Source: Escherichia phage vB_EcoM_phAPEC6. Taken from it: a DNA stretch of 64,000 nucleotides. Shown here in pieces: positions 6,097 to 31,017 of the stretch. Position numbers and translations under genes: made by a program. The stretch lies in sequence record MK817115.1; one strand, 5' to 3'. The first letter of the stretch is position 1, and every line of letters starts with the position of its first letter. The notes under the pieces are model-generated. The model was not told the DNA's origin, did not search any database, and saw nothing but the letters and a program-made list of their open reading frames with translations.

Positions 6097-6103
6097 ATAT
6101 ACA

Positions 6104-6114
6104 TTATATCATTG
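6104..6114 (-). promoter_or_regulatory. extended -10 promoter-like motif TGATATAAT (minus strand), preceded by ATGGGACAT box
   Basis: Plus ATTATATCATT = minus AATGATATAAT; same 11-mer at 61748-61758 and TGATATAAT at 31238-31247. Confidence 0.3.
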
Positions 6115-6131
6115 GAACATATAATGTCCCA

Positions 6132-6530
6132 TTACATGTATACTTTTTTAAAATCCTTAGAACAACGATCAAAAATTGTGTTTATGAATTCAACATCTTC
6201 GATAATATTCGAATCGTTAGCAACATTTTCATTTCTTGTCGTGTTCCTATATGTGTGTTCAGGATGATTGTATACCACCTTGACTACATTATTTAGGTCT
6301 ATAAAATTTGACGTTTTTTGCGTATATGAAGCCTGAAGCTTGATGAGTTTACCATCATTCTCAAGATTGGTTTTATGAATTAGTTCTTCAATACCAGTTA
6401 AATGGCTATAGCTATCTTTTTCTTTTACAAAAGTAATAGTAACAAGAACTGCTTTCTCATCTCCCATATCGGAAATGTTTTTTACAGCACTGATAATTTC
6501 TAAGTTTGAAAAATCTAATTCTTTAAGCAT
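6132..6530 (-). CDS. hypothetical protein
   Basis: 132 aa ORF. Confidence 0.45.
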   Translation of the reverse strand: MLKELDFSNLEIISAVKNISDMGDEKAVLVTITFVKEKDSYSHLTGIEELIHKTNLENDGKLIKLQASYTQKTSNFIDLNNVVKVVYNHPEHTYRNTTRNENVANDSNIIEDVEFINTIFDRCSKDFKKVYM

Positions 6531-6531
6531 T

Positions 6532-6888
6532 TTACAAATATTTCCACAAAGTTCGATAAGTGATAATTTCTTCTCTGGTTACAGAAACTTCATTGCACTT
6601 AACACCATCAGTTTCATTACTGAATGGTTGTACTGGTCTATCTTCTGTTAAACCTCGTTCATAAGTACAATGATAAAACTTATTTGTACTCATGTCAAGA
6701 AATACGAGATCAAATTCTTCAGTCCATCTTCTGTGCCCTTTGCTTTCATTGCAGATGATTTTATATTTTACATCTGGTTTAAAAGTTTCAGTACTGTCAT
6801 CCCATGCACCATAGTCAGTATATTCATCATTTTCATCTAACTCTGCTAGATGCCACATTAATTGTGGTAAAAAGATTTTAGATTTCAT
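6532..6888 (-). CDS. hypothetical protein
   Basis: 118 aa ORF. Confidence 0.45.
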   Translation of the reverse strand: MKSKIFLPQLMWHLAELDENDEYTDYGAWDDSTETFKPDVKYKIICNESKGHRRWTEEFDLVFLDMSTNKFYHCTYERGLTEDRPVQPFSNETDGVKCNEVSVTREEIITYRTLWKYL

Positions 6889-6898
6889 TTATTTTCTC

Positions 6899-6929
6899 CA
6901 AAAAAAAGGACTTGAATACTCAAGTCCTT
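6899..6929 (-). terminator. rho-independent terminator
   Basis: Stem GGACTTGA/TCAAGTCC with loop ATAC, A-run on plus (U-run on minus) at 6901-6907; downstream of 6941..7597. Confidence 0.5.
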
Positions 6930-6940
6930 ATAATATCATA

Positions 6941-7597
6941 TCAATCATGTTTATTCAATTTCTTCTGTTCTTTTTTCAAAGCTTTCATATGACGACCAAA
7001 CTCTCGAACATGCCATAGATGATCAGTTTCCCATAATTCTTGACGTAACCTACGTTCTTCTAGTAGTTTCGACTTGTCAATGTTATTTTTCTTTTTTTGT
7101 ACATTAAAGAAATTATTCATATGTTCTTGGAGAAGATTACGACCTTTAACTTTCTCAAGAAACTCATCAACTGTTTCAGTTTTATTCGAACGTAGTTGAT
7201 TACATCTGGAGCACATAGTATTAAAGTTTGACTCTAAATCAGGTCCACCCTTAGATGCCAGATGATTATGGTCAACTGTCATTAAAACTTCATAAAGACC
7301 ACATACAGCATATACATTTAAATGTGGTTTACCATATACTGGATCAGAACATAATGAACGTTCAATGCGTACTTCAGTAGCTTCAATCCCACATGCCACG
7401 CATTTTGGATTCTTAACAAAAGTAAGAACTTTTTGTGGGAAATATCGAAAAGTAATACCATTTAAAGTGTAGCGTTTCATCTTAGTACTTCGTTGATTTA
7501 ATTCTTCAAGAAGTGATAATTTTGTCGTATAGTAAACATGATATTTGTTCATTTTATTCCTTGATATTGATTTTAATATCTTTACCTTGTAAATCAC
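6941..7597 (-). CDS. HNH-family endonuclease (free-standing, homing-endonuclease-like)
   Basis: 218 aa; Cys pair CVACG then DHNHLASKGGPDLESNFNTMCSRCN matching the HNH motif; bracketed by terminators. Confidence 0.55.
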   Translation of the reverse strand: MIYKVKILKSISRNKMNKYHVYYTTKLSLLEELNQRSTKMKRYTLNGITFRYFPQKVLTFVKNPKCVACGIEATEVRIERSLCSDPVYGKPHLNVYAVCGLYEVLMTVDHNHLASKGGPDLESNFNTMCSRCNQLRSNKTETVDEFLEKVKGRNLLQEHMNNFFNVQKKKNNIDKSKLLEERRLRQELWETDHLWHVREFGRHMKALKKEQKKLNKHD

Positions 7598-7862
7598 GAA
7601 TAGTTTTAATCAATGCGTCGTGTTTTAAAGCACATTCATTGTAGACTGCATCCCAACGAGTAAGTACTTTAAGAATTTCTGCACCATCATAACCTTTAAA
7701 ACCATTTTTGTCAATCATAATTTTTTGTGGTAGAGGTGTATCATCATCACATCTTTCTAACAGAATTTCTTGTTTAATTGGTGCGGGGGATTGTAGTTTT
7801 ACTTGCTCGGCACACCCACTTATAATTAAAAAAGAAATCATTGGAACTAATAATTTTTTCAT
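7554..7862 (-). CDS. outer-membrane spanin subunit (o-spanin lipoprotein)
   Basis: 102 aa; signal peptide with lipobox LIISGC; overlaps the upstream i-spanin-like gene, as in T4 pseT.3/pseT.2. Confidence 0.5.
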   Translation of the reverse strand: MKKLLVPMISFLIISGCAEQVKLQSPAPIKQEILLERCDDDTPLPQKIMIDKNGFKGYDGAEILKVLTRWDAVYNECALKHDALIKTIRDLQGKDIKINIKE

Positions 7863-8233
7863 TTGAATTTATTCCTCGCTGCTTGAGAATTTTGTTTTAG
7901 TTCATTCAGTACTTTTACACCATCTTCATCTAAACATACATTCTTATAAACTTCACGTTCTACAATAAAAGGAACCTTTGTTTCAATAACTTTAGCATTA
8001 TCTTCCATGATTTTTTTAGTTTCAAGGTAATTTTTTGCATTTTCTTGTTGCATTTTATCCAAGGCGGTATCAACTTTTTTAGCTATTTGTTGCTCTATGC
8101 TTTGTTGATATCCACTGTAATAAGTATTAGCTTCCCAACCAGCATAAGCTGAACCGCCAATTAATAATACAAAAGAAATTGGTTTCCAAAATGGAATAAG
8201 AATTTTTGAAACAATTATTTCTAACATACTCAT
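7859..8233 (-). CDS. inner-membrane spanin subunit (i-spanin)
   Basis: 124 aa; N-terminal TM helix then charged coiled-coil-like region; immediately upstream of and overlapping the lipoprotein gene. Confidence 0.5.
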   Translation of the reverse strand: MSMLEIIVSKILIPFWKPISFVLLIGGSAYAGWEANTYYSGYQQSIEQQIAKKVDTALDKMQQENAKNYLETKKIMEDNAKVIETKVPFIVEREVYKNVCLDEDGVKVLNELKQNSQAARNKFK

Positions 8234-8286
8234 AATAATATCTCCTATAGTTGATGATATTATTTAGAGTATACAATTGTATAGTT

Positions 8287-8706
8287 TTACAACATTTTTT
8301 GAATATGTTCTACTAGTTCATACAGCTTAGTTTCATTATTCTCGAACTTTTCATCAACTTCAACATTGAATTTTTCTTCTAGTTCCATTACCATTTCAAT
8401 CCAATCAAGCCAATCAAAATGGAATTTTTCTTCGACTTCCAATTTAGTAAGATTGAAGTTCGCTGATACATCATTCTCTGATGTATCACAATAACGAGTA
8501 GTGATGAATTTGACAATTTCTTTTTCAACATCGTTTAATTCACGAGTTTGATATTCGGGCTGAAGATACCACCACTCTCCCTTATTAATAGATTCCAATT
8601 CTTGTTTGATTTCATGCATTACTTTATAACGGTCAGTACTTTTATGAATAGAATTGACTTCTTGGTTCAATACATGTAGTGCATTTTTAATACGTTCATT
8701 TAACAT
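8287..8706 (-). CDS. acyl-carrier-protein-like protein lacking the phosphopantetheine serine
   Basis: C-terminus FDWLDWIEMVMELEEKFNVEVDEKFEN aligns with ACP helix II ([26 protein letters not shown]) but Ser is replaced by Trp. Confidence 0.4.
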   Translation of the reverse strand: MLNERIKNALHVLNQEVNSIHKSTDRYKVMHEIKQELESINKGEWWYLQPEYQTRELNDVEKEIVKFITTRYCDTSENDVSANFNLTKLEVEEKFHFDWLDWIEMVMELEEKFNVEVDEKFENNETKLYELVEHIQKML

Positions 8707-8781: not shown

Positions 8782-11571
8782 TTATAAATCACGGAAACGA
8801 TTTGGTGTGTTTAAGCGGTACATTGAGTATAATCCCAATCCACGCATAATCTCACCTGCCCAGAAACCAAAAAACATACCATTATCAGTACCTTCTCTAA
8901 CTGCTGGACTCCATGAACCATTCATTGGTGAACCTGGATTTACAATAACATAATTCTTTTGAAGTTCGAGAACTAAGTTATCAGCGAGTGTTGTTAGACC
9001 TTCTATTTTACATCCAGCCAATCCAGCAGCACAAGCCCCAGCTAACCACAACCCACACATATGACCTGTAAAGTCCCAATCTGGACCTTCAACTGTGCCA
9101 TCTTTATTGAAGATTGTTGGTGAACGACCATCATTATCTTTTTGAAATTGAATTAAAAAGTGAATCCAATTCTCACAAAATTCAACAAGATCTGCTGGTG
9201 GTTCAATTCCTCTCTCTGCGAGTTCTTGCCATGCTCTGGCAGCCCCAAAGAACGCACGTGGTTCATACCCACTCCATGCTTGATCACCCCAATGTAGCAT
9301 AGTAAATGTATCTGGTTCACCATATTTTAAGTTATCCCAGCGGTTCCAAACATATGCTTGTGCACACGGACCAACAGTACCGAATTGTTGAGTAAACCAT
9401 GTTTGGGAATCTTTCATAAAGCTTAACATGTTTCCTAAGCGTGTGTTATCTACTGGCTGGTCTTTAAAACAATATATCACAGGATATTGATAACCTGGAT
9501 ACGGTAAACCACGCCATCCTGAATACTGGTTCGCATACGGGTCAGTGATGTTAGAAAATGGTATTGTTCCTGGTGTGTAATGCAATGAGTTTAACAAATA
9601 ATCCTTGATTACACAATCCCCTAACTGTGCAGTATATGGTGATTCACCTGCAATTGTTATTGAAAATGTCATAGTATAGTCATCACCGTCAGCATCCGTG
9701 TATAATTCTGGAATGTCATTAATACAATACCAATCAATTATTGCAGCAACACCATCTACTGGGGTTGTATCAGGTAAAATAGTAATATCTTCTAGTTCAC
9801 TATAAACTGGTGCATCTGGTCTTGGGTCAGAACTTGGATGATTTGGCTGATACCCAGATAAACGTAATGTATCGGAACTTAGTGTGATTGTAGTCCATTC
9901 CCCGTGTGTTGCAGGAATCATCCACCACCATCTCCAACCATTATCATCTACAATTCTTATATTGTAATCATCTTCATATGAACGATAGGTAAAAGATTTA
10001 ACTTCAGACTTATTTGTTGCTAATAGCCAAAATCCAATAACAGCACCATCATCTTCACCACAAACTAACTGATTAATGGTATCGCGGCGTGTAACTAATA
10101 TATCAGTACTATATATCATTTCGGACGTTGCTGCACCATAAGGAACAACAATTCTATTATCAGCAATTATATAAGGGGAACCATCTGCTTTCTTTTCTCT
10201 AACAAATGCACTTAAAGGTGTTAATGAATGTGTGATATTTTGGTCTTTACTTTCCGGTAAGCCACAACGATAACGAACAACATCATGGTCATTTTTTGTT
10301 TTTGACAATTCCAGTACTGGTTTAAATGATAACGGCTTACCATCATCACATACACCACCATAGTCTACAAGTAATTTAGAATCAGCATTGACCCTGAACC
10401 AAATAGCTTGTTGTTCCATAGTACTTTGTGCACTTTGGTCTTGCCTGATAGTAATATATCCTAGAGAATTTCTACCAAACTTAGCAATAGCATCACTAGG
10501 ATAAAAATATTCATAGGAAATACCATCAGTGAATGGTGTGGTTACAATTGTACTTTGTCTGAAAAATTTATCTCTGGAGTCAATATCACCATAAGCATAA
10601 CACGTTAGTAGTGAACATTTCCAACCCAAATAATGTTTTCTTTCTTTTGTTATTTTATATAACAAATAAGAAGCATCACTAAACCATAATTCTGCATCTG
10701 ATGCGTTATCAGCAAATTCCAAATCAATTGGAACATGAAGAGGGCGGTTGTGTTGCATTTCATTTCGTTGAATTATCACACCACCATATTCTACTGGTTG
10801 ACGATTTGCAAAATTTAATTTATATACACCATTAATTGTTGTATTCTTTAATTGAACAGTTCCTTTTTCAGATTCGTCAAAACCTTCTGCTAAAATATTA
10901 CCATCCCAGTCGATTTTTCTACCCATGAAATCGATAATCCAGTCAACATCATATTGTTCACCTGGTGTATCCCAATCAACACTACCATCTGGTAATAATG
11001 CTTTTACTGAAGCATTTATTTGGTTCCATGCTAACGCACCTTTGAATGCAAATGTCACTTTATCCAAGAACTGACCATAATATGGTGCACCATGTGGTAT
11101 TTTACATTGACCATTAGTAAATGTAAATTCTACTCCCTTGAAACCACCATGTGTGGGCCAGCCATCATCAGCTAAAGGCCAGTTAGCCAATATAGGTTCT
11201 TTGGCATTAACTATCCAGTTACATTGTAGTGGTGTAGGTGGATCTGGTAATTCACGTCCAGCATAAAAGTACTGATGATATGCGTCCCAATACCACTTTG
11301 CCTTATCTAAAAACATTGGATCATTTGTTGCCAGATACGCATAAATGTATCCTAAAATTAATAGACTTTGACCTTCTGTTGTCCCGTCACCGTTTGGTTG
11401 ACCTTCCATTGCAGAATAGTTAATAAAATGACGGTTGTTCGCCAAAACACCCTGATTATTCACCACATAATGTTGTACTGTTGGGTCTATTGTATCACCA
11501 GTATTTCTTTCAATAAATTTGTGATGCCCATAAAGAAGTTGTACAATATTATCAATATTATTGTTTAACAT
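8782..11571 (-). CDS. large virion-associated protein of unknown function
   Basis: 929 aa, Trp/Tyr/Gly-rich, lies in a cluster with tail-fiber genes; no catalytic motif recognised by eye. Confidence 0.5.
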   Translation of the reverse strand: MLNNNIDNIVQLLYGHHKFIERNTGDTIDPTVQHYVVNNQGVLANNRHFINYSAMEGQPNGDGTTEGQSLLILGYIYAYLATNDPMFLDKAKWYWDAYHQYFYAGRELPDPPTPLQCNWIVNAKEPILANWPLADDGWPTHGGFKGVEFTFTNGQCKIPHGAPYYGQFLDKVTFAFKGALAWNQINASVKALLPDGSVDWDTPGEQYDVDWIIDFMGRKIDWDGNILAEGFDESEKGTVQLKNTTINGVYKLNFANRQPVEYGGVIIQRNEMQHNRPLHVPIDLEFADNASDAELWFSDASYLLYKITKERKHYLGWKCSLLTCYAYGDIDSRDKFFRQSTIVTTPFTDGISYEYFYPSDAIAKFGRNSLGYITIRQDQSAQSTMEQQAIWFRVNADSKLLVDYGGVCDDGKPLSFKPVLELSKTKNDHDVVRYRCGLPESKDQNITHSLTPLSAFVREKKADGSPYIIADNRIVVPYGAATSEMIYSTDILVTRRDTINQLVCGEDDGAVIGFWLLATNKSEVKSFTYRSYEDDYNIRIVDDNGWRWWWMIPATHGEWTTITLSSDTLRLSGYQPNHPSSDPRPDAPVYSELEDITILPDTTPVDGVAAIIDWYCINDIPELYTDADGDDYTMTFSITIAGESPYTAQLGDCVIKDYLLNSLHYTPGTIPFSNITDPYANQYSGWRGLPYPGYQYPVIYCFKDQPVDNTRLGNMLSFMKDSQTWFTQQFGTVGPCAQAYVWNRWDNLKYGEPDTFTMLHWGDQAWSGYEPRAFFGAARAWQELAERGIEPPADLVEFCENWIHFLIQFQKDNDGRSPTIFNKDGTVEGPDWDFTGHMCGLWLAGACAAGLAGCKIEGLTTLADNLVLELQKNYVIVNPGSPMNGSWSPAVREGTDNGMFFGFWAGEIMRGLGLYSMYRLNTPNRFRDL

Positions 11572-11572
11572 A

Positions 11573-12109
11573 TCATACTCCTGCTCTAATTAATGCACCG
11601 TACCATGTAACTCCTTTATCATATGTTTCTAATGAAATAATATCTTTTTCACCAATTTCATAAGAAAGAACAACTGGTCTGTTATATGACCATTTAACAT
11701 TAGAACCCCAATTAACTAGGTTTGAACCTGTTTGTTGTGTTAATAGGATGGTAATTGAATAAACTTCAGTAGGAGCCGTACCAATCGAAATAGTAGTATT
11801 TCTATCAGATAAATTAATATTAAAAACAGAATTGCCCGACAGTGGATTAATTAAAATATTATTAGAACTTAATACATTATATAACTTATTACTTGCACTA
11901 TCATATAATGTTACCCATTCTGTTTCATGATTCTCGTTAGTAGCTTTAGCTTTTATCTTAACATTATTTTCAGAATCAGTCATTCCAGTCCATCCAGATA
12001 TAATAAAAGAACTGTTTTTATTAGTTCCGAATGATGCAATCACAGAATCACTAAGAGAACTATCTTCACCATCAATAGATCCGAGTACTGACAATGTTAA
12101 AACCATCAT
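11573..12109 (-). CDS. hypothetical Ser/Asn/Thr-rich protein
   Basis: 178 aa; overlaps 12072..12263 in another frame, possibly one gene with a frameshift. Confidence 0.4.
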   Translation of the reverse strand: MMVLTLSVLGSIDGEDSSLSDSVIASFGTNKNSSFIISGWTGMTDSENNVKIKAKATNENHETEWVTLYDSASNKLYNVLSSNNILINPLSGNSVFNINLSDRNTTISIGTAPTEVYSITILLTQQTGSNLVNWGSNVKWSYNRPVVLSYEIGEKDIISLETYDKGVTWYGALIRAGV

Positions 12110-12263
12110 TTTTAATGTCTACACCAGTAGCACCAGAAAAATTATTTTGAAATTTAATAACTCCGGTAGTGTGGATATCTGTGAAAATTTGTTGTGCCAT
12201 ACTTAATCCTTGTGTTAATTTATATTGAGTATTTATTGAGTGTAATGGCATTTTTAGTACCAT
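12072..12263 (-). CDS. hypothetical small protein (possibly N-terminal part of 11573..12109 via frameshift)
   Basis: 63 aa ORF overlapping the next ORF by 38 nt; similar composition. Confidence 0.3.
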   Translation of the reverse strand: MVLKMPLHSINTQYKLTQGLSMAQQIFTDIHTTGVIKFQNNFSGATGVDIKNDGFNIVSTRIY

Positions 12264-12277
12264 TACACTTGTATATG

Positions 12278-13510
12278 TTACTTATACCATTGCATTTCTC
12301 TAATATCAATGATAATTTTTGATGCTAACTTGATGTTTGGTTTTTTAGGAAGTACTGATTTCTTATATAGAACATCACGAATGTATTGTACTTTATCATC
12401 GAAATATTCTAATACTTCTTCATACTTCCATTTACCATTACGAATATCCATCAACATTTGTGCATCTGGTCGTTTAACTTGAATAATTCCACTTTGTAAC
12501 GCTTCTTCTGCACTATTCAAAAGTCGGATTGTGTGCATAGCATGTTTACAATCGTATCCGTGTTGTGATTCTAAAATAGCACGTTTGGCATTACGATTTT
12601 CTTTCCATTTATGATAACTTTTCCTATTCTCACTATTTTCCTGATATTCTTTTTCGTTAAATTTGACAATTAGTTCTGGTTTGGTTTTCAACTCTTCAGT
12701 ACTACGTTCTTTTGAAAAATAACGCAATGAACCATCATGGTTAATAGTGCTTTCATTAGGATTCTTAACAATCGCAAAAATGTTTTCTCCGTAATGAATT
12801 AGTTCATAACCATTATTAAAATTCAATAAATTGAAATCACGATCAAGAATTTTTTCAGTAGTGTAGTTATGCACTAATCTTACGAAATGATATTGCTTTA
12901 ATGGATTTTTCGAAACTAACTGCAATGATGTATCACGCATATATTTTTCAAAATCAATCTTTTTAGCATTAAATGGATGTAAGTTGGATGTATCTAAACG
13001 TTCAACAAGATACTGTGGGAATGAATCATACATCCACGCAAGAACCTCATCGACAGGGTGTTCTTCTAAAATCTCATTTAATCGTTTTTCAGCAATACGC
13101 TCTTTATCCATCCAACCGTGATGATTTGTCATACGCTTAATCTGATTATATGCATATCCAGTGTATGAAAATGCAATCTTGGAACTAAGAAGTTTTTGGT
13201 TAAATGAACGAAGATAGTCATAAATTTCAGTACTTTCCACAATGTGTTCAGGTTCAACCCAAAGTGATTCAAGAATATTAGGGTTAGCTTCAGTGTATAA
13301 TTTTAAATACTGATTCAACTCATAGAATTTAGTATCTTCTTCGCTTTTGTCAGCTACCTCGTTGACCTTATAGAAGGGTGTAAGAATAAATTCTTTATTA
13401 GCAAGAAAAATACCACGATAATCAGTATCACTTTCCGGTGTACTGGTTCCGTAGGCTTGTGACCCAGCCAAGTGTTTCACTATTGTTTGTTCAATATATT
13501 GGTTATTCAT
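12278..13510 (-). CDS. Pol-beta-superfamily nucleotidyltransferase-domain protein
   Basis: 410 aa; N-terminal GSQAYGTSTPESDTDYRG fits the minimal NTase motif GS-x10-DxD. Confidence 0.5.
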   Translation of the reverse strand: MNNQYIEQTIVKHLAGSQAYGTSTPESDTDYRGIFLANKEFILTPFYKVNEVADKSEEDTKFYELNQYLKLYTEANPNILESLWVEPEHIVESTEIYDYLRSFNQKLLSSKIAFSYTGYAYNQIKRMTNHHGWMDKERIAEKRLNEILEEHPVDEVLAWMYDSFPQYLVERLDTSNLHPFNAKKIDFEKYMRDTSLQLVSKNPLKQYHFVRLVHNYTTEKILDRDFNLLNFNNGYELIHYGENIFAIVKNPNESTINHDGSLRYFSKERSTEELKTKPELIVKFNEKEYQENSENRKSYHKWKENRNAKRAILESQHGYDCKHAMHTIRLLNSAEEALQSGIIQVKRPDAQMLMDIRNGKWKYEEVLEYFDDKVQYIRDVLYKKSVLPKKPNIKLASKIIIDIREMQWYK

Positions 13511-13908
13511 AGATAAATTGTTAACTCCTTTAAGAAACCATTATAATAACGATTAAAGTCATGTTCTAATGTTTTATAATCATCAAAACTAAAACCTAAA
13601 TTGATAATTGTATCTTCTTGAAAGAAAGTTTCTTCATTCATACATTCAATAGGTTCGTAATTAATTCCACCTTTGAAAACTTTTGTAAAAAACATTCCAT
13701 CATTATTAATTTCAACATACATAAAATTATTTTCTGGGTCACGAGGACAGACGATATTCAGTGAACTATTTCCACTTGTATTGTACTCATAAGAAATTAT
13801 ATCAAAAGAATCAATACCATAACACTTAGATTTTTCTTTATCGCCAAATACTTTTCTATCTGTACTCATATTGCGTATAGTGCTATAGATATCATCAACT
13901 GTAGTCAT
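13507..13908 (-). CDS. hypothetical protein
   Basis: 133 aa ORF. Confidence 0.4.
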   Translation of the reverse strand: MTTVDDIYSTIRNMSTDRKVFGDKEKSKCYGIDSFDIISYEYNTSGNSSLNIVCPRDPENNFMYVEINNDGMFFTKVFKGGINYEPIECMNEETFFQEDTIINLGFSFDDYKTLEHDFNRYYNGFLKELTIYL

Positions 13909-13910
13909 AG

Positions 13911-14420
13911 TTAACCACCATACTTTGACTTGTATGTTTCAAGTGATAAAGATATACGATTTTGCTTTTTAATTCTTTCATCAATATCCTTTGAATTCTT
14001 CACACTTCGGTATACGTCAGCTAATAAATTATAATCTTCTTTATTTGAGCTATGCTGTGTCCAACCTATGTCTGTTTTAATACGAACATTTGCTTTATTT
14101 GACGAGTAAAAGAAACTGAAACCATTTGACCCATCAAAAATATCAAAAGTATCTACCCAATCACCATAAGGAAAACTCATCGGGACTGACTCGTGGTCGA
14201 TTGTGATATCCGATAAATTTTTTGAACAGTACTTCGCAAAGTGATAAACAATTGGATCACATTTAGATAATTCATATTTGTATTCAATGATAGTTTTTCT
14301 ATTAGCATCATTGATAGCATATTCTTTCATCAATGGGCTTTTTTTGATGATAAGAGTCCACAGAAACGATTCTAATCCGGTTTCATCAACTTTTTGTTTC
14401 TTTTTGAAAAATGAAATCAT
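13911..14420 (-). CDS. hypothetical protein, member of tandem paralog triplet
   Basis: 169 aa; shares DANRKTIIEYKYELSK-type motif with 14417..14938 and 14945..15511. Confidence 0.45.
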   Translation of the reverse strand: MISFFKKKQKVDETGLESFLWTLIIKKSPLMKEYAINDANRKTIIEYKYELSKCDPIVYHFAKYCSKNLSDITIDHESVPMSFPYGDWVDTFDIFDGSNGFSFFYSSNKANVRIKTDIGWTQHSSNKEDYNLLADVYRSVKNSKDIDERIKKQNRISLSLETYKSKYGG

Positions 14421-14938
14421 TTATATAAACCCTTAATTTTCTGTCTATTATGTATATCATTTTGCTGGATTTTCAATTTAGTAAGGTTGTTTCTTACACC
14501 TTCAACTCCACGCATTATTTGTAACATAATTAGTGATTCGTCATATGTTAGTACATTGCTATTATTATCGATATATACTTTCACTCCACTTTCAAGATAA
14601 TCATTTTCTTTGGAGTTAAAGTTTCTAATAGCAAACTTAACGCCATTTGATGTATCACTGAAAACATATCGTTCCGCACCGTAGAATGTTTTTCCACGAA
14701 ATAAACCGCCGTCTTCCCACTTCCAACGACTAGATTCATAATCATTAACGTAATCAATGATTAAAGAAAGTAAAGGGTGTTTGCTCAATTTATATTTTGC
14801 ATCTAACAGGATACGTCTATCATTATCTGTGGTGATAATATCCTTTAGTGAGTAGCTTTTAGATATAATTTTAAAGATAATTTCATGCCAAATTAAAGTA
14901 CTGTTTTGTTTTCCAACTGATCCAAAAAACATATCCAT
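14417..14938 (-). CDS. hypothetical protein, member of tandem paralog triplet
   Basis: 173 aa; motif DNDRRILLDAKYKLSK. Confidence 0.45.
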   Translation of the reverse strand: MDMFFGSVGKQNSTLIWHEIIFKIISKSYSLKDIITTDNDRRILLDAKYKLSKHPLLSLIIDYVNDYESSRWKWEDGGLFRGKTFYGAERYVFSDTSNGVKFAIRNFNSKENDYLESGVKVYIDNNSNVLTYDESLIMLQIMRGVEGVRNNLTKLKIQQNDIHNRQKIKGLYK

Positions 14939-14944
14939 TCCTCA

Positions 14945-15511
14945 TTAGTATAAATCAGTAATGTCTTTGTATGCATTAATCTGTTTTTGTTGTAATGAAA
15001 GTTCATTGAGTTTAGTTACCATTTTATCTACACCAACACGTGTATAGAAAATAATAAATGAATCTAAATTGCCTAGAGTAATTCTTGAACTGTAATTTGA
15101 AAGTTTTCTTGCATAAACATAAATTTCTTCTTCACTTGGTAAACGTTTCTCAATCGGCCAGCTTTCCACACCATTCGGCTCATAATCGATTTCAAATTCA
15201 ACTCCCATCACTGTGTCTTGAATGAGATCCGTATATGAACCACCGTAAAAATACTCTCTTGGTTTGGCTCTCCAACGAGGACTAAATGGGTCAGATGCGT
15301 ATTCTTTTACAAATTTGTAAAAGGACATTTTACTGAGCATATACTTCATCTCAATTAGTGCTTTGCGGTCATCATCAGTTTTAAACTCTGCTTTGAGCGA
15401 TGGACTTTTACACAGTAACTTAACTAAATTGATGTACATCTTTAATGTACGTTGTTCTTTCATTTCTTTGATTTTGTGACGTTTTGGTGGCGGTAATAAA
15501 GATTTGACCAT
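14945..15511 (-). CDS. hypothetical protein, member of tandem paralog triplet
   Basis: 188 aa; motif DDDRKALIEMKYMLSK. Confidence 0.45.
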   Translation of the reverse strand: MVKSLLPPPKRHKIKEMKEQRTLKMYINLVKLLCKSPSLKAEFKTDDDRKALIEMKYMLSKMSFYKFVKEYASDPFSPRWRAKPREYFYGGSYTDLIQDTVMGVEFEIDYEPNGVESWPIEKRLPSEEEIYVYARKLSNYSSRITLGNLDSFIIFYTRVGVDKMVTKLNELSLQQKQINAYKDITDLY

Positions 15512-15544: not shown

Positions 15545-15573
15545 AAAAGAAAAGCCCGTCAATAGACGAGCTT
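15545..15573 (-). terminator. rho-independent terminator ending the tail-fiber operon
   Basis: Stem AGCCCGTC/GACGAGCT (one mismatch), A-run on plus 15547-15552; just downstream of 15579..18308. Confidence 0.45.
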
Positions 15574-15578
15574 TAAAT

Positions 15579-18308
15579 TTATTTCCAACGTGTACCTGGA
15601 CCTGATGGTACACCAGTACTGGCAGGTATCGCTGAACCACGTTTCGTTGTACTTGGACGATATGTCAAAAAACGAGTTACTTTTTCTGTATCAATTGAAG
15701 TTATTCCTGAAGTTCCAGTAACTATCTTACCAATGTAAGTGCTAGTTAAAGATTCATCAATTGTTTCAGTACTAATAACATATGACGCTTTCTTAGTATT
15801 CCTGTTCATTTGTATATACAAATAGAACGTAGTATTAGCTGGGTTACTTTTTACAGTACTTAAATCAACACTTTGTATAGGTAGTCTGTCGAAAATTCCA
15901 CCTAAAAACACCGGAACTTCACGTGTAAAGTACACTGAGAATCCTTGTGCAACGTCTTGTGATACTACCACAATCTTTTCTTTAACGCTACCATTTCCAC
16001 TAATTAAACCATCCATTTCAGCAGATGTTGTACCAAAAACGCTGAATACAGATTTGGTTTGATAGTCAGAATCTTGAAAATTGTAATATCCAAAACCAAC
16101 ACCAGGAATAACACCATGTTGATATGCTGCACCAAGTTGGATGTAACTAGATGATAAAAAACGATTTGATGTTATGACACCATCTACTGTTTTAGCTATC
16201 ATCATCTTAAATTGTGCATTACCTGGTTGTGAAAATTGATGAACAGCATCAACACCAATGTAACCAAATCCTGAATATTTTGCAACTGTTAGACCAGTAC
16301 AACGTTTCATATATGCTTCAGTAATAATTCCTGTAACAGAACTAAGTGTCTCATATCTAGTACTCACCAATGTAGCTGAAGTTATGTTAGTTCCAGATAA
16401 TACAACATCAACTTCGGCATAGATTGCATAACCTTGGTTATTGTTAAGATTATATGCTGAAACTACTGCGATGGATTTAGAAAAAGTATTATCAGGTACA
16501 TAATATAATACAATTTGTCCAGATAGTGTGCCAACAATGCCAGAGTTTCCTATATTAGCAAAAATATCTTGTTTTAATGATTCTAATACCGTTGGTTCTA
16601 TTGTATATGTTTCATCAAATTCTAAAGTATCTGGGTTTAATAATCCACCACTTGTTTTATATACACCTTCAATGAATGATGTTCCATAGCATCTAACACT
16701 ACCATCGGTATCAACAAGAGAAATCATAGCAGTGTATGTAAAATCATCGCCTATTTGTTTACGATTAGATTGTGGTGCAAAACCATTTAATGTAGTATTA
16801 TTTTGAACTGAGTTATATTGATATGTTGGTTGTGAACCTATTTCAGAAAAAACAGTATTATTATAATTATATGTTACATCATCATACGTACCAGAACATG
16901 CTAATAATATTTTTCTATTATCGATGAAACGTACACCTAAAAGGTTTGCACCAACAGCACTACCAAAAACTGGTAAAACGTTTGCATTTATAACGTTACT
17001 TGCGGTTCTAGTACTGGCAACCCATGAATCAAACGGTGTACCACTAACCTTATATCGTTGTAGACCATAAAATTCAGTTGAACTCCATCTAAATTTAGAT
17101 GCAAATACCAAACCATCTTTAGTTTGACATAAACCACCTGCGTTTCCTAATACACCAGCAGCAGTTGTCCCTGTGAAGTTGACCATATTAATTTCAAATG
17201 GGTTAGAAACTTGAAATCCATTATTATATGAAACAGTTGCAGGTGCACGAGCACTACCATCTAGTGACATAGATTTTGAGTTTATATTATAAACAAAACT
17301 TATTCCAGTACCATAAACTGTTGAAATATACAAAGGTGTAACCATTCGATGTGTTGGATATAAAGTTACACGTATTTTTGATAAATCAGTACTAACGTTG
17401 GCTTGAATGTTAAAGTCTGTATAGTCTGAAAATTCTACACGTGATACTGGTGATGTAACTTCGAATAATGAATCCGAGCTAGTACCAACACTATATAATT
17501 TATCGAACACTCTTATGTTATTAGATGCAGAATAACTTGTGTTTCGAACAGTTTGACCTGATAACCCAGTAACTTTTGTTAATGATGCCATTGAGCTTGC
17601 TTTCACATCACTTAGCTCTACTGTATAAATTGAAAGTGCTAATCCTAAATTAGAAACACTTTTATCTTTACACCAAATATAAACCTTTGTCCCAACAATA
17701 TGTGTATATATTGGCATATCATTACCAAAAGAAGTACTTGGCACTTTAGCATGAATATGTGATATTTCGTTAAATGTGCCATTGGTTATAGTAAAAATAT
17801 AATTATCTTCAGTACTTAAACATCCAAGCATCTCATAACCATTAGAGCCAATAAAATACTTAATATTTTCAGTACTACTCATAATTGAAGGTTTATACAT
17901 TGAATTGGTTGAAATAACACTTTCTTGTGAAATCATAGTTATATTTCGGAGTTCTCGTATAAATGAATAATAAAAACCTTTAGTACTACCATTGGTTCCG
18001 CTACGCAGAACAACGGCGGTTCCATCATCTTCAATAATTGTTGGCTGAACTACTTGGTCACTTGACATAGGTGTAGCACCTTCATACGACCCACTTACGT
18101 TTAATGGTAAGTAATCCATTTCTCCTACACGTGATATAGGCAACATATCTAAAATACTTTGAACTTCTGAACGCTTATATATTGGATATTGAACAATTCC
18201 AGTATTGGCATTCGGTGAGGTTCCATTAAAAGTACGCATAGCGTACCTTTGTCCAATTGCCAAGTTCCCAAGGATCTCGGCACTTCCTATAATTCGTTTT
18301 GATGACAT
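15579..18308 (-). CDS. tail fiber protein
   Basis: About 909 aa from ATG 18308 (RBS AAGGAAAAG); N-terminal LRSGTNGS and C-terminal VVSQDVAQGF...SRF.TYRPS module shared with 18924..21620 and 18325..18912; track ORF start 18398 is probably too long. Confidence 0.55.
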   Translation of the reverse strand: MSSKRIIGSAEILGNLAIGQRYAMRTFNGTSPNANTGIVQYPIYKRSEVQSILDMLPISRVGEMDYLPLNVSGSYEGATPMSSDQVVQPTIIEDDGTAVVLRSGTNGSTKGFYYSFIRELRNITMISQESVISTNSMYKPSIMSSTENIKYFIGSNGYEMLGCLSTEDNYIFTITNGTFNEISHIHAKVPSTSFGNDMPIYTHIVGTKVYIWCKDKSVSNLGLALSIYTVELSDVKASSMASLTKVTGLSGQTVRNTSYSASNNIRVFDKLYSVGTSSDSLFEVTSPVSRVEFSDYTDFNIQANVSTDLSKIRVTLYPTHRMVTPLYISTVYGTGISFVYNINSKSMSLDGSARAPATVSYNNGFQVSNPFEINMVNFTGTTAAGVLGNAGGLCQTKDGLVFASKFRWSSTEFYGLQRYKVSGTPFDSWVASTRTASNVINANVLPVFGSAVGANLLGVRFIDNRKILLACSGTYDDVTYNYNNTVFSEIGSQPTYQYNSVQNNTTLNGFAPQSNRKQIGDDFTYTAMISLVDTDGSVRCYGTSFIEGVYKTSGGLLNPDTLEFDETYTIEPTVLESLKQDIFANIGNSGIVGTLSGQIVLYYVPDNTFSKSIAVVSAYNLNNNQGYAIYAEVDVVLSGTNITSATLVSTRYETLSSVTGIITEAYMKRCTGLTVAKYSGFGYIGVDAVHQFSQPGNAQFKMMIAKTVDGVITSNRFLSSSYIQLGAAYQHGVIPGVGFGYYNFQDSDYQTKSVFSVFGTTSAEMDGLISGNGSVKEKIVVVSQDVAQGFSVYFTREVPVFLGGIFDRLPIQSVDLSTVKSNPANTTFYLYIQMNRNTKKASYVISTETIDESLTSTYIGKIVTGTSGITSIDTEKVTRFLTYRPSTTKRGSAIPASTGVPSGPGTRWK

Positions 18309-18324
18309 CTTTCTTTTCCTTAAT

Positions 18325-18912
18325 TTACCAACCAATTGTACCAGTTTCTGATGGTTTTCCAGTACTGACTGGGAATGAAGAACCTTTTTGTGTAACACTA
18401 GGTCTATATGTACTAAATCTGGATACTTTATTAATGTTTATATTTGTAATACCACTTGTACCAACGGTCAGTGTTCCAATAAACATTATAATTTCAGATT
18501 CTTGTATTTGTGTTGGTGATATTTTATAAATTGGTTCACCGAGAACTAACGTTGCATATACGTATTGTGTTTGTGTTCCAGATGAAACAGTTGAAGCAAA
18601 AATAGAAACTGCTGGAAATTTATAAAGATAACCACCAATAAATGATGGTATCTGTCTATTAAATGTAAGACTATAGCCTGATGAAGTAATATTTAGACTA
18701 GCGTCATCATACAATTCTCCGTATTGTGTAAGTGGTAATCCATTGACAATAAAGTTAACTTCATCTTTGGTAATAGAGGGGAATGTACATTCCCCATTTG
18801 AATTTGTTGGGTAATAAGTCATATTATTACCTAATACACCAAGACCAGTACTTTTACCCTGAACTGTAACTTGTTGCATTGCCTTAAGGTCTGCTCTTAT
18901 TTTATATGCCAT
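18325..18912 (-). CDS. small tail fiber-related protein carrying the shared C-terminal module
   Basis: 195 aa; C-terminus SRFSTYRPSVTQKGSSFPVSTGKPSETGTIGW matches the C-termini of both large fiber proteins. Confidence 0.5.
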   Translation of the reverse strand: MAYKIRADLKAMQQVTVQGKSTGLGVLGNNMTYYPTNSNGECTFPSITKDEVNFIVNGLPLTQYGELYDDASLNITSSGYSLTFNRQIPSFIGGYLYKFPAVSIFASTVSSGTQTQYVYATLVLGEPIYKISPTQIQESEIIMFIGTLTVGTSGITNININKVSRFSTYRPSVTQKGSSFPVSTGKPSETGTIGW

Positions 18913-18923
18913 TATGTAATCCT

Positions 18924-21620
18924 TTACCAGTTTATGGTTCCTGTTTGTGATGGTAGACCGTAGCTAACTGGGAACGATGAACCTGCTGATTCAAGTGAAG
19001 CACCAAATATATCTAAACGGGAACGTTTTTGTATATTAATTGTTTCGATTTGAATTGCATTAGTTTGAATTGTACCTATCCAAAAAATATTATATGCAGT
19101 TGTCCCTGTTTCAGAAATAACATCAGTAGTTATGTAATAGTTTGCCAATCCTTGTTCCAATTTAACATATACATAAAATGTTGTATTTGCTGGATTAGAC
19201 TTAATAGTTCTCAAATCAATATTTGAAACTGGTAGTGAAAATGACTTACCTGAAAGAATAACTGGTGTTTCCTCTGTAAAATATACAATAAACCCTTGAG
19301 CAACGTCCTGGGATACTACGTTAATTGGGCTACCTTGTGCAGTCCAGTTATTATAGTCTGCAATCGTTGTTCCATATTTTTTGAATGTCATTTTATTTGA
19401 GTAATCCATTGGTTCAAAAATTCCAAAACCAATACCAGGTAATGCTGCTGGTTGACTTCCTTGTTCATAACTGGCATGAGATCCAGTAATTATAAAACTT
19501 GTAAATTGTGCAGTTGATTTAGTTACATATGCTCTAAATTGATGAGTTGCAGTATTACCTATTGTTGGATGTGATAATGGGTCAGAACCACCAATGAAGT
19601 AGAATGAACCACCATCATATATGGTCAAACCAACAGAAGAAGATGCAATCGAACCATTCCCAGTTGGTGTAAAGTTATCACCATACGTATTCTCAAGTAC
19701 TAAACGCTTAAATGTAATAGATGTAATATTACCAACTCTAGTATTGACATTAACTTCAGCAATTCTAATATAGTTTCTATAATCATTAGTAATTGTACTC
19801 AACATAACAAAAGCTGGAATGTCTGTTTGTTGTGGAACAAATAGTGTCATATCACGGTATGCTTGTGCTGATAAATTCCAATCACTTAGAACTTTGGCAT
19901 ATTCAGTATTTCTAAAATTGTCCAGTACTGATTGTGTAACGCTTATAATTCCTGTGCCATTTAAGTTTTTATCATAGGATAATGATTGTGAATAACGTTG
20001 CCCAACCATAAAAATACCACCATTGGTTGTGACAGTTGACCCAGAAATACTACTAATAAAAATTCTATTATTTGCATTATCATCAACATTAGCACGTTCA
20101 ACTGTAGGTTCATAACCTTGTATTGTTCCTAAAGATAATGATTTAAATGTAAAATTAGGAGTACTTTTATGAACTGCATATGATGGTCTAAATCCACCAC
20201 TACCTGATGCACGTGAATATTGTTTAGTACTGTTATCTGGTAGTAATTCTACACCATTAATAAATGAACCAACCGCTGAACCAAAAGACGGGCGAACTAT
20301 ACCACCTTTGAAGTCAGTAGAAAGTACAGCACGGACATTCAGCATACTATAAACTATTTGAATAGGAAACTTAGCTTTTTGCATAAGTAATGGTTCTGCT
20401 AAGTTTGGACATGTAGTACAAAAAGCTTCACCAGAATTCAAATAAAAATATGAACTATAAATGTTTCTTGCATTTGCATGGTTATACAATGGATCGTTAT
20501 TTAAAACGTTACCAGTAGGAACTAATGCCGAACCAGTATTAGTTATAACTAATGGTGCTTGATATGAACCAATATCGTTACCCGCATCTAATGTACATTG
20601 TTTAGTACTCATATTGAACACAAAACTGTAACTATGCTGTGGACGTGTATTATATGTTGCCATTGTAAACCAAGCGTCCCCGTTCATTCTAAAGCGGAAA
20701 TTCTGCGTTCCTGGCTGCTGTGCAACATATAAATCAATTGATGTCATGTAAATCCCAATACCACGTAGATTTTGTGGAACATACACATAAGGTTTATCAG
20801 CAATATTTGTTGATGTTACCTGATTAGTAATAACCATATTATTTTGTGCAGAATATGTCGTGTTATAAAATGTTTTAGTAGTCCATCCAGTAATTCGAGT
20901 TGCAGTATAAGTACCATTGCTTATATTATAAACAACTTTTACAACAACTAATTGTAGTTGGTTATTTTCATTAAGTACGTTAAAAACATATATAGAACCA
21001 TCTTCTGCCATCATAGCATATTCAATACCACCTTCAGGTGATATATCTGCTTGGTTAACGAAAAAACCAGTATGCAATTTATCATCTAATGTACCATTGG
21101 TAATTGATATGAACAAACCATTAGTACTGTTAGAAGTATCAATATATCTACCGAGTAAAATATTTGGATCAGTATTGTATAAACCAATCGCAACTCTATT
21201 TGAACCAAAAAACCCAGGCTTGTATTGACGACTAGTGTTAATTGTACGGCTCATGTCATCAACTGATAATGCGTTAGCCAAATATGAATAAAATAATCCC
21301 TCAACACTACCGTTTGTCCCACTACGTAAAAGTACTAGTGTACCATCGTTTTCTAATAAAATTTTATTTCTACGTTGTGACTGGTTTTCTGATGCACCAT
21401 TGAAATCCCCAGAAACACCCGCAGGTAGATAGTTTTGTGAACCATAATGGGAGATTGGCATCATACTTACTATATCTAGTACTTCATCTCTGGAATAAGT
21501 ATCTAATTCCAAGTTACCGTTGGAATCAAAAACTTGTTCATTTATTCCTTGAATTGTTCTTTTACCATTAACTGTCACATTATGTGTGACATCTAAGCCA
21601 CCATATATTTTCTTTGACAT
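18924..21620 (-). CDS. tail fiber protein
   Basis: 898 aa; paralogous to 15579..18308; T4-type late promoter upstream. Confidence 0.55.
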   Translation of the reverse strand: MSKKIYGGLDVTHNVTVNGKRTIQGINEQVFDSNGNLELDTYSRDEVLDIVSMMPISHYGSQNYLPAGVSGDFNGASENQSQRRNKILLENDGTLVLLRSGTNGSVEGLFYSYLANALSVDDMSRTINTSRQYKPGFFGSNRVAIGLYNTDPNILLGRYIDTSNSTNGLFISITNGTLDDKLHTGFFVNQADISPEGGIEYAMMAEDGSIYVFNVLNENNQLQLVVVKVVYNISNGTYTATRITGWTTKTFYNTTYSAQNNMVITNQVTSTNIADKPYVYVPQNLRGIGIYMTSIDLYVAQQPGTQNFRFRMNGDAWFTMATYNTRPQHSYSFVFNMSTKQCTLDAGNDIGSYQAPLVITNTGSALVPTGNVLNNDPLYNHANARNIYSSYFYLNSGEAFCTTCPNLAEPLLMQKAKFPIQIVYSMLNVRAVLSTDFKGGIVRPSFGSAVGSFINGVELLPDNSTKQYSRASGSGGFRPSYAVHKSTPNFTFKSLSLGTIQGYEPTVERANVDDNANNRIFISSISGSTVTTNGGIFMVGQRYSQSLSYDKNLNGTGIISVTQSVLDNFRNTEYAKVLSDWNLSAQAYRDMTLFVPQQTDIPAFVMLSTITNDYRNYIRIAEVNVNTRVGNITSITFKRLVLENTYGDNFTPTGNGSIASSSVGLTIYDGGSFYFIGGSDPLSHPTIGNTATHQFRAYVTKSTAQFTSFIITGSHASYEQGSQPAALPGIGFGIFEPMDYSNKMTFKKYGTTIADYNNWTAQGSPINVVSQDVAQGFIVYFTEETPVILSGKSFSLPVSNIDLRTIKSNPANTTFYVYVKLEQGLANYYITTDVISETGTTAYNIFWIGTIQTNAIQIETINIQKRSRLDIFGASLESAGSSFPVSYGLPSQTGTINW

Positions 21621-21653
21621 TATATATCCCTTATAAATTAGATATTAGTTAAT

Positions 21654-21661
21654 GTATTTAT
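21654..21661 (-). promoter_or_regulatory. T4-type late promoter TATAAATA
   Basis: Plus TATTTATA = minus TATAAATA, about 34 nt upstream of the ATG at 21620. Confidence 0.45.
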
Positions 21662-21669
21662 ATACATAA

Positions 21670-21692
21670 TAAAAAAGCACCCAACGGGTGCT
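21670..21692 (-). terminator. rho-independent terminator after nrdG
   Basis: Stem AGCACCC/GGGTGCT, loop AAC, A-run 21671-21675 on plus. Confidence 0.5.
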
Positions 21693-21696
21693 TATG

Positions 21697-22167
21697 CTAA
21701 AAATCTTTATTTTTATATAGTATTCTTTGATTATTTGAACCACGGAAAGGTAATTTTAAATTCTTTTCGGACTCAATAAACTTACCATCAACTAATACAT
21801 CTAAGTACTGAAGTATATCTTTAGCATGATTTTTCATAATCTCATCTAAAGTATACCCACTCCAGCACCAAATAGTTTTACTAGGATAAGTTTCTTTAAC
21901 TACTTTGCATAGATTTAAAACTTCATCTATATTCTTTTTCATTAATGGATCGCCGCCTAGAAGTGACAAACCACTAACATATGGTTTTTTTAGTTCCTGT
22001 AGTATAATCTCAACTGTTTCAGTACTGAACAATTGACCACTTCTGTAATCCCATGCTTCTTCATTGAAGCAACCATCACATCCGTGCGAACACCCACTAA
22101 CAAATAAAGAGCAGCGAACGCCCTCTCCATTTACTAAATCATCCTTGATTATCGTCTGGTAATTCAT
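21697..22167 (-). CDS. nrdG: anaerobic ribonucleotide reductase activating protein (radical SAM)
   Basis: 156 aa; CSHGCDGC cluster; adjacent to nrdD. Confidence 0.85.
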   Translation of the reverse strand: MNYQTIIKDDLVNGEGVRCSLFVSGCSHGCDGCFNEEAWDYRSGQLFSTETVEIILQELKKPYVSGLSLLGGDPLMKKNIDEVLNLCKVVKETYPSKTIWCWSGYTLDEIMKNHAKDILQYLDVLVDGKFIESEKNLKLPFRGSNNQRILYKNKDF

Positions 22168-22471
22168 CTAATATTGCACTCACTATTTCGACAAGAACAT
22201 CGCCGTGACATGATTTTGGTTTACAGAAACAACCAAGGCGTTTCCCTGCGAGTTCAAGTAATTCATCAATCTTAACTTCTCCACAAGAAATACGTTCAAT
22301 AATGTATTCTCTGAATTTTTCAATTGATTCTTCTCTTGTACTAACAATGAACTCGGCTTTGGTTTGTTTATCTTTAATATGGGTAAATGGGTTTCCCCAT
22401 TTAGACCCACGTCCAATATACACATCATACGGTTCTTTGTATTTGTTAACCACAATTGGCTTTAAATCCAT
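22139..22471 (-). CDS. conserved phage protein (DUF4326-like)
   Basis: 110 aa; YDVYIGRGSKWGNPF motif; sits between nrdD and nrdG. Confidence 0.45.
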   Translation of the reverse strand: MDLKPIVVNKYKEPYDVYIGRGSKWGNPFTHIKDKQTKAEFIVSTREESIEKFREYIIERISCGEVKIDELLELAGKRLGCFCKPKSCHGDVLVEIVSAILDELPDDNQG

Positions 22472-30233: not shown

Positions 30234-30791
30234 TTAGCTCCCTTTGTATTGATGTTTACGTTTAGTACTGTATTTCCAGCCAGTACTGTGTCTTGTTCTG
30301 ATATCGTCCCAATACGATGGTAATGAACGCATCTTACGTCTTCCACGTATTTCAGGTTCCCCCTCATCCTTCAGTACTGCACAAGCCATACGACGCTCTT
30401 GCTGAGTCTTAGGACGCTTGTATCGGGAGTGGTTATGTTTGTACATATACGAACGCTTATGTCGCCATTCCTTATCACGAGCTTTACGTTTATGTTCCCA
30501 GTACTCATTATAGAGTATCATGTATTCACCCATAAGTAAATCAGGAGATACAAGTAATCCTTTTTCAGTACAAAGATAATAACCCACAAACTTTTCTGGA
30601 AACATTTCGTAATAGAAACGGTTCTTCCAAAATGTTTCACGATTCTTTTTGTTGAATTCAGCTAAATCGAATTTCATCTTACTGTGGAAACGGTCTATAC
30701 CGTCATGTTCCGCAATGTACTCTAACAGATTATCAATAATCTCAACTTTACCAGAATCGTGATACAACGTAAATGTTTGGTCAAAAAACAT
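30234..30791 (-). CDS. hypothetical protein with basic C-terminus
   Basis: 185 aa ORF; Arg/Lys-rich C-terminal third. Confidence 0.45.
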   Translation of the reverse strand: MFFDQTFTLYHDSGKVEIIDNLLEYIAEHDGIDRFHSKMKFDLAEFNKKNRETFWKNRFYYEMFPEKFVGYYLCTEKGLLVSPDLLMGEYMILYNEYWEHKRKARDKEWRHKRSYMYKHNHSRYKRPKTQQERRMACAVLKDEGEPEIRGRRKMRSLPSYWDDIRTRHSTGWKYSTKRKHQYKGS

Positions 30792-30913: not shown

Positions 30914-31017
30914 CGAAAAACTGAAATAACACATGGAGTTCTTTTTAATTTAATAAAAAGTATTATTATTCTTATAAAAGTATTTATTAAGAACTCCACA
31001 ATATGGCTTCAAATGAA

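Follow-up and report, generated by a model that had tools for sequence, protein, structure and literature searches.

In a window of 64,000 nucleotides from Escherichia phage vB_EcoM_phAPEC6 (phAPEC6; sequence record MK817115.1), the minus strand between positions 15579 and 21661 carries three consecutive genes, termed A, B and C in the following, which encode proteins of 898, 195 and 909 amino acids (aa). Their alignments show the three to be paralogs. On balance, we favour the view that they form an ancient late operon of the Rak2-like jumbo phages, encoding three paralogous virion proteins that share one anchor domain and would co-assemble into an adhesin. The window matches Escherichia phage BF17 (Asteriusvirus) at 100% identity and PBECO4, SP27, UB, slurp01 and other ~350-kb Asteriusvirus jumbo phages at 99.4–99.8%. 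All features described below are located on the minus strand unless stated otherwise.

Three paralogs share a module made of both termini

The listing of open reading frames (ORFs) contains the three minus-strand frames of 898, 195 and 909 aa just as the original prediction had described them. Gene A (18924–21620; 98.62 kDa) encodes a virion protein with a predicted split shoulder domain and a central β-propeller region. Gene B (18325–18912; 21.16 kDa) encodes a headless paralog consisting of the shoulder only, with its own ribosome-binding site (RBS) spacing within the operon, and gene C (15579–18308; 98.80 kDa) a full-length paralog of A, starting from an ATG with an AAGGA RBS. For gene C, the listing also gives an alternative GTG start at 18398, yielding a longer frame that runs into gene B.

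The C-terminal module that had been proposed for all three proteins was borne out by pairwise alignments, with B sharing 43% identity with C over 120 aa (E 1e-23) and 36% identity with A over 125 aa (E 1e-16). The accompanying statement that the N-terminal and central parts differ did not hold: A and C can be aligned over their whole length (27.7% identity, E 1e-63), and the N-terminal ~65 aa of B are likewise common to the large proteins (E 1e-6 to A). Because B also has this N-terminal stretch, the alignments indicate that the shared element consists of the N-terminus plus the C-terminus, and not of the C-terminus alone. The motif VVSQDVAQGF, listed earlier as part of the module, is common to the two large proteins only.

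A hidden Markov model (HMM) profile of the module, built from the N-terminal 72 and the C-terminal 122 residues, finds only genes A, B and C within the window. In A the N-terminal part comprises aa 1–75 (21396–21620; profile positions 1–75), containing a helix (44–52) and a strand (56–59), and the C-terminal β-sandwich together with the tail comprises aa 762–898 (18927–19337; profile positions 66–192). The corresponding C-terminal part of C spans aa 772–909 (15582–15995; profile positions 60–192). Between the two parts of A, aa ~80–760 (19341–21383) constitute an all-β propeller region that is missing from B. The large proteins match PHROG 3573 over nearly the whole profile (A, E 1.7e-274; C, E 8e-266), and B matches PHROG 26864, a 195-aa family, at positions 1–195 (E 4e-115). 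Pfam and NCBIfam scans of the trio proteins gave no match, and sequence searches with A, B, the family profile and two relatives from Pseudomonas phage EL against all Protein Data Bank (PDB) chains yielded no meaningful match.

The predicted fold combines a propeller head with a shoulder-type anchor

The AlphaFold2 monomer model of A is all-β, with a predicted local distance difference test (pLDDT) score of 86.4 and a predicted template modelling (pTM) score of 0.80. Residues 1–70 and 873–898 are modelled with low confidence despite their conservation. This applies to the N-terminal segment (aa 1–75), conserved yet of low pLDDT, as well as to the conserved C-terminal tail of ~26 aa, which ends with an invariant Trp and is disordered by prediction. 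A fold search with the model returned only β-propellers, among them lectins, GH130/GH43, GH32, sialidases, an ulvan lyase and the phi11 receptor-binding protein (RBP), pointing to a propeller fold for the central ~700 residues; at 5–12% identity these matches do not amount to a family-level assignment. For the shared C-terminal module the fold search identified the β-sandwich of RBP shoulders and of the TssK N-domain, with lower-scoring matches to a phi812 baseplate protein, Mtd, IglD and a baseplate protein of an Anabaena contractile injection system (CIS). In characterised systems, this shoulder fold trimerises and fastens a host-binding head to the baseplate. Pfam, NCBIfam and PDB sequence and profile searches revealed no sequence homology of the module to curated RBP shoulder or TssK families.

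In the models, the strand order of A 778–869 mirrors that of B 75–166, and helix 44–52 of A mirrors helix 49–58 of B. We infer that the N-terminal ~70 and the C-terminal ~125 residues would constitute a single anchor domain with the ~700-residue propeller inserted between them, and that B would be this domain by itself. Phage Deimos-Minion lends independent support: the profile matches gp18 contiguously (positions 41–192 at residues 271–423), whereas in gp19 its N part and its C part lie ~750 residues apart.

These models bear on two earlier ideas about the trio. The proteins had been called fibre proteins, but the models consist of globular β-propeller(s) plus a β-sandwich and contain no coiled-coil or β-helical fibre segments. 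Nor did a possible intramolecular chaperone function of the module find support, as Pfam searches up to E 1 gave no Peptidase_S74 and the fold is of the shoulder type instead. According to its record, an S74 domain is carried by gp25 of the chimallivirus Goslar, a fibre protein encoded near gp26.

The trio reads as a self-contained late unit

A T4-type late promoter motif, TATAAATA with the core ATAAATAC, is located at 21655–21662, 35 nt 5' of the gene A ATG. It is directly preceded by the intrinsic terminator of the upstream nrdD–nrdG unit (21675–21693; GCACCC..GGGTGC followed by a T run), and a second intrinsic terminator (15551–15574) ends the operon 5 nt past the gene C stop codon. The late promoter before and the terminator after the operon, both part of the original prediction, are thus in place, and both flanking terminators are annotated in the phage G17 record. 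With terminators on both sides and a late promoter of its own, the trio reads as a self-contained late unit amid early-type genes.

The promoter motif is rare in the window, where TATAAATA occurs 2 times against 13.4 expected. For the core ATAAATA the count is 4 against 45.8 expected (standard deviation 6.4), a roughly ten-fold depletion, suggesting that the late-promoter core is strongly counter-selected across the window. Two of the three minus-strand ATAAATA sites precede genes with products in phAPEC6 virions. Besides the site upstream of gene A, this applies to the element CAATAAATAC at 12230–12236, located 30 nt 5' of a 42-aa ORF and heading an operon of 42-aa, 178-aa and 929-aa frames. 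The upstream order of hairpin, ATAAATAC and RBS at gene A is kept in all eight related phages compared (G17, UE-S1, EC.P1, 7t3, GAP32, CBB, Serratia BF and Yersinia fHe-Yen9-04). According to the CBB paper, structural genes of that phage are preceded by ATAAATA and a gp55-like sigma factor is encoded (PMC5259590); a phage sigma factor has been reported for phAPEC6 (PMC7247149). The RaK2 paper contains no promoter information.

The third minus-strand site (30981–30987) is followed ~190 nt downstream by a 185-aa ORF (30234–30791). A plus-strand ORF of 125 aa (36690–37067) starts ~190 nt beyond the sole plus-strand ATAAATA/TATAAATA (36496–36502), in a region of otherwise minus-strand coding.

The 195-aa protein descends from a full-length middle paralog

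The gene order nrdD..nrdG followed by A, B and C is kept in Asteriusvirus, in Salmonella phage 7t3, in Mimasvirus (GAP32 and CBB) and in Eneladusvirus (Serratia BF and Yersinia fHe-Yen9-04). In every Rak2-like genus examined, the operon is flanked by nrdG on one side and early-type genes on the other, outside the baseplate cluster. The location beside nrdDG, away from the main structural cluster, had been observed correctly; as a peculiarity it does not stand, since it is conserved in four lineages and is the ancestral position rather than an oddity of one phage.

The length of the middle gene differs between these lineages. All three genes are full length (895–946 aa) in Mimasvirus and Eneladusvirus, and the middle gene encodes 195 aa in Asteriusvirus and 7t3. 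Against the full-length middle paralogs from Serratia BF, CBB and GAP32, the C-terminal module of B (125 aa) scored 102–110 bits and its N-terminal 80 aa scored 48–56 bits; both termini are less similar to A and C of their own genome than to these foreign middle paralogs. By this comparison, B is the ortholog of the Mimasvirus/Eneladusvirus middle paralog, minus ~730 central residues. As the termini of B are closest to middle paralogs elsewhere, the three lineages are older than these genera.

Despite this loss, B shows the hallmarks of purifying selection and does not look like a remnant, because its length is kept, its ratio of nonsynonymous to synonymous substitution rates (dN/dS) is low and its C-terminal tail is conserved. 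Its orthologs stay 195–202 aa long down to 46% identity, dN/dS is 0.12 versus UE-S1 and 0.19 versus EC.P1, similar to A and C, and the most conserved part of the protein, the tail NKVSRFxTYRPSxTQKGSSFPVSTGxPxQTGTIxW, is almost invariant.

Gene A shows a distinct pattern of divergence. Between BF17 and G17/121Q it has 87–93% nucleotide identity, with dS 0.51 and dN/dS 0.04 (window positions 19000–21700), and the divergence is sharply bounded, gene B and the flanks being 99–100% identical. The N-terminal half of gene C (16900–17800) shows a smaller dip to 93–95% versus G17. Sharply bounded divergence hotspots are common for host-range genes and typical of exchanged host-range modules. The pattern in gene A suggests allelic exchange by recombination.

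Virion evidence and the wider family

We mapped the window genes onto the phAPEC6 virion proteome by three exact mass matches and gene order (PMC7247149). By mass and gene order, A (98.62 kDa) corresponds to virion protein gp323c, represented by 4 peptides at 5.6% coverage, and was therefore detected in phAPEC6 virions. The expectation that the trio proteins occur in virions is confirmed for A and for its Goslar homolog gp26, but not for B and C. In CBB, GenBank labels CBB_148 and CBB_149 (CBB sequence 9321–14834) as 'structural protein', yet the mass-spectrometry table for CBB virions contains neither; this label was probably transferred by homology from GAP32.

Goslar encodes a comparable cluster of the adjacent genes gp28, gp27 and gp26. 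Here, gp28 is a headless shoulder protein of 169 aa (profile E 1e-13), gp27 is a 161-aa protein whose N-terminus resembles gp28, and gp26 is the 867-aa homolog of A. Label-free quantification of Goslar virions purified on CsCl gave estimates of 14.3 copies for gp28, 13.8 for gp27 and 12.8 for gp26 (bioRxiv 10.64898/2026.04.21.720040). The trio is therefore nearly equimolar, and the low copy number is compatible with a six-fold baseplate. A common N-terminal segment is present in gp26, gp27 and gp28 (Goslar 4872–8487). By weak BLAST matches (E 1e-3 to 1e-4), the NPxxVT-type motif of this segment is also found repeatedly within gp25 and gp29, two neighbouring tail-fibre proteins.

Three consecutive module genes were also found in Agricanvirus (Deimos-Minion gp18, gp19 and gp20), in Proteus phage 10 and in pEa_SNUABM_37, and the gene adjoining the trio is annotated as baseplate protein in Deimos-Minion and Proteus phage 10. 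At least two module genes are present in Pseudomonas phage EL. A profile search of 1.84 billion representative proteins yielded 426 family members with a bimodal length distribution: among the best 148 of these, 62 are at most 260 aa long, and 72 have 701–1250 aa with the module at the extreme C-terminus, a pattern that we count in favour of the split-domain interpretation. Translated searches (tblastn) had suggested extra mini proteins in Proteus phage 10 and pEa_SNUABM_37, which we rejected, as the annotation identifies these matches as C-termini of 1000–1150-aa proteins. RaK2 and K64-1 (Alcyoneusvirus) were not among the tblastn matches listed, which were an even sample. The papers on Sharanji and fEgEco12 contain nothing on the trio genes.

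A proposed co-assembling adhesin and its alternatives

In the scenario that we favour, B would have descended from a full-length middle paralog by an in-frame deletion that removed its head, and would since have been kept by purifying selection. The three shoulder domains would assemble with one another, an A:B:C heterotrimer being plausible since the shoulders of the p2 RBP and TssK are trimers, and the complex would sit at the periphery of the tail or baseplate. Its propeller heads, of lectin or glycosidase type, may bind a host surface carbohydrate, and the headless B may be retained as a subunit needed to complete the anchor. Oligomeric state, exact virion location and ligand are what we infer here. 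Co-assembly is favoured because three diverged lineages are kept in fixed order, because members without a head have been kept and turn up in several lineages, because the terminal segments are conserved yet disordered in monomer models, and because the Goslar trio is equimolar.

Several observations weigh against this scenario. Neither B (21.16 kDa) nor C (98.80 kDa) is listed in the phAPEC6 virion proteome, and the CBB mass-spectrometry table lists none of its three paralogs (PMC5259590). The propeller matches of A are generic and name no ligand, and the packing of the N-terminal helix on the C-terminal sandwich is presumed. In Goslar, the match of gp27 to the shoulder profile does not rise above noise (E 0.12), and the label-free estimates span ~8.5–22 copies, which would also fit three homotrimers at 18 copies each. 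Only two module genes were found in the stretch of EL examined. The heterotrimer itself is an extrapolation, since the known shoulders are homotrimers.

This last point leads to the strongest competing account, rather unlikely in our estimate, in which each paralog would form its own homotrimer at a separate virion site, for example the bases of the 'hairy' fibres or the decoration at the collar and distal tail, with B as a separate small adaptor or cap. It would agree with the structurally closest domains, those of the p2 RBP and TssK, being homotrimers, with Goslar copy estimates of up to ~20 that permit 18 copies (six homotrimers) of each protein, and with the unassigned fibre bases at three annular tail levels and unassigned decoration proteins of phAPEC6. 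CBB is hairy as well and has three paralogs, with no gene assigned to the hairs. The predicted globular propellers are however difficult to reconcile with ~119-nm filaments, and GAP32 has all three paralogs, though the CBB authors treat it as possibly whisker-less. This account moreover reduces the near-equal abundance of three adjacent Goslar proteins to coincidence and leaves a headless homotrimer without obvious function, yet conserved and recurring in many lineages. The same headless form bears on whether the 195-aa ORF could be a decaying, functionless remnant of a deleted paralog. Although B originated when a full-length gene lost ~730 internal residues, and was not detected in phAPEC6 virions, the constant ortholog length down to 46% identity, the almost invariant tail and the RBS spacing inside the operon speak against such decay, and the dN/dS of 0.12–0.19 largely refutes it. 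Headless forms also recur independently in Goslar, there in virions, and in metagenomes; we consider a remnant extremely improbable.

We regard it as very improbable that the proteins are mainly enzymes, for example glycosidases or lyases directed at capsule, lipopolysaccharide (LPS) or biofilm, or otherwise no stable structural components, their detection in virions then being adventitious. In favour of this, the operon is surrounded by genes of nucleotide metabolism, GH130, GH43, GH32, sialidases and an ulvan lyase are among the propeller matches, the phAPEC6 coverage is low (5.6%), and mass spectrometry of RAY and Deimos-Minion was done on crude lysates. Against this stand a late promoter of the kind preceding structural genes, the presence of gp26, gp27 and gp28 at ~13 copies each in the CsCl-purified Goslar particles, and an anchor-type shoulder fold that points to attachment; a virion-attached enzymatic head, as in tailspikes, would be compatible with the co-assembling adhesin and hardly a rival to it. 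Highly improbable, in our view, is that the trio represents tail fibres like T4 gp10/gp11/gp12, the module being a common receptor-binding tip or an auto-cleaved intramolecular chaperone. Three consecutive late genes with a common module would fit this, as would the automatic labels 'minor tail protein' or 'tail fiber' that some records give to relatives, and a functional correspondence between TssK-like shoulder proteins and T4 gp10 has been discussed in the literature. Yet the models combine propeller(s) and sandwich and have no fibre segments, the fold-search lists shown contain no gp10, gp11 or gp12, and Pfam detects neither Peptidase_S74 nor any other domain. A module that includes the N-terminus and alone makes up B would suit an anchor, not a distal tip or a discarded chaperone.

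The co-assembling adhesin can be extended to a broader proposal, which we offer tentatively and consider possible though doubtful. Two distant clades of jumbo myophages, the Rak2-like phages and the chimalliviruses, would share an obligate hetero-oligomeric, probably heterotrimeric, adhesion device of three split-shoulder paralogs, in which the number of heads is evolutionarily tuned and headless subunits act purely as assembly partners, and which possibly forms the base of the 'hairy' appendages of phAPEC6 and CBB. Such a complex may carry three heads in Mimasvirus and Eneladusvirus; Asteriusvirus and 7t3 would have two, Agricanvirus two and a short form besides, and Goslar a single one.

No function is assigned to about 83% of the proteins of Asteriusvirus, and the genes for the unusual tail and capsid appendages of these phages and for host recognition are largely unassigned as well (PMC7247149, PMC5259590). 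The present family is represented by 426 clusters in public data but by no model in Pfam or NCBIfam, and our analysis now provides for it a structural interpretation consisting of an RBP/TssK-type anchor, its interruption by a propeller and recurrent headless partners. This would explain the conservation of a 195-aa ORF between two 900-aa genes and link Rak2-like phages and chimalliviruses via a common tail component. It also makes testable predictions on stoichiometry, co-assembly and host range, relevant to the engineering of jumbo phages considered for E. coli therapy.

Neighbouring genes

Downstream of the operon, three tandem small paralogs of 188 aa (14945–15511), 173 aa (14417–14938) and 169 aa (13911–14420) together span 13911–15511. 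The 188-aa and 173-aa proteins match each other at E 2e-15, the 169-aa protein matches both more weakly, and none of the three has a Pfam match. A sigma-70-like promoter at 15562–15534 (TTGACG-17-TATAAT, 11/12 matches) overlaps the terminator downstream of the trio and faces these genes. Further downstream follow an RlaP-like (RNA repair pathway) nucleotidyltransferase (12278–13510; E 8e-16), the 42-aa ORF (12072–12200; 4.66 kDa), which has exactly the mass of phAPEC6 virion gp315c, seen at 69% coverage, and the 929-aa 'tail fiber' (8782–11571; 105.34 kDa), which has exactly the mass of virion gp314c and no Pfam or NCBIfam match. On the other side of the operon, a DUF4326 protein (22139–22471; E 6e-24) is encoded between nrdD and nrdG.

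Comparison with known systems

The comparison with T4 gp10, gp11 and gp12 made in the original prediction holds loosely. Both sets are encoded by three adjacent late genes and are, for the trio by prediction, peripheral tail proteins with a common structural element, and TssK-type shoulders are peripheral baseplate connectors. The trio differs in its location outside the baseplate gene cluster and in its architecture, and similarity to gp10, gp11 or gp12 was seen neither in the Pfam results nor in the fold-search lists shown for two models.

Among jumbo phages, the phiKZ gp131 family (gp131, gp133–135) forms hetero-hexameric peripheral baseplate fibres with β-propeller heads (PMC13250141). It resembles the trio as a set of consecutive paralogs with a common attachment segment and with a propeller head for which host binding has been proposed; its members co-assemble into a hetero-oligomer. 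Membership of the trio in this family was tested and found unsupported. The DUF7941 filament proteins (Goslar gp22/gp23; bioRxiv 10.64898/2026.04.21.720040) are likewise virion-associated, occur as full and truncated paralogs, contain conserved segments modelled as disordered in the monomer and have a proposed role in host recognition. They form filaments of hundreds to thousands of copies, in contrast to the ~13 copies each of Goslar gp26, gp27 and gp28. We rejected an assignment of the trio to DUF7941, as Pfam gave no match and gp26 is not among the DUF7941 proteins listed in that study.

Among the closest known systems are the baseplate protein TssK of the type VI secretion system (T6SS; 5Y0E, 6N38, 5M30) and IglD (8DQL), with the trio having no Pfam or NCBIfam match to TssK families. 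TssK lacks a propeller and uses its C-terminal head to bind the membrane complex. The module is likewise close to the N-terminal shoulder domain of the lactococcal siphophage RBPs (p2 ORF18, 2WZP; phage 1358 RBP, 4L92) and of SPP1 gp22 (2XC8), with which it has no detectable sequence similarity. Whereas those RBPs are the product of one homotrimeric gene with the head appended after the shoulder, the large β-propeller head of the trio is apparently inserted inside the domain, and three diverged paralogs, one of them headless, occur together in a jumbo myovirus.

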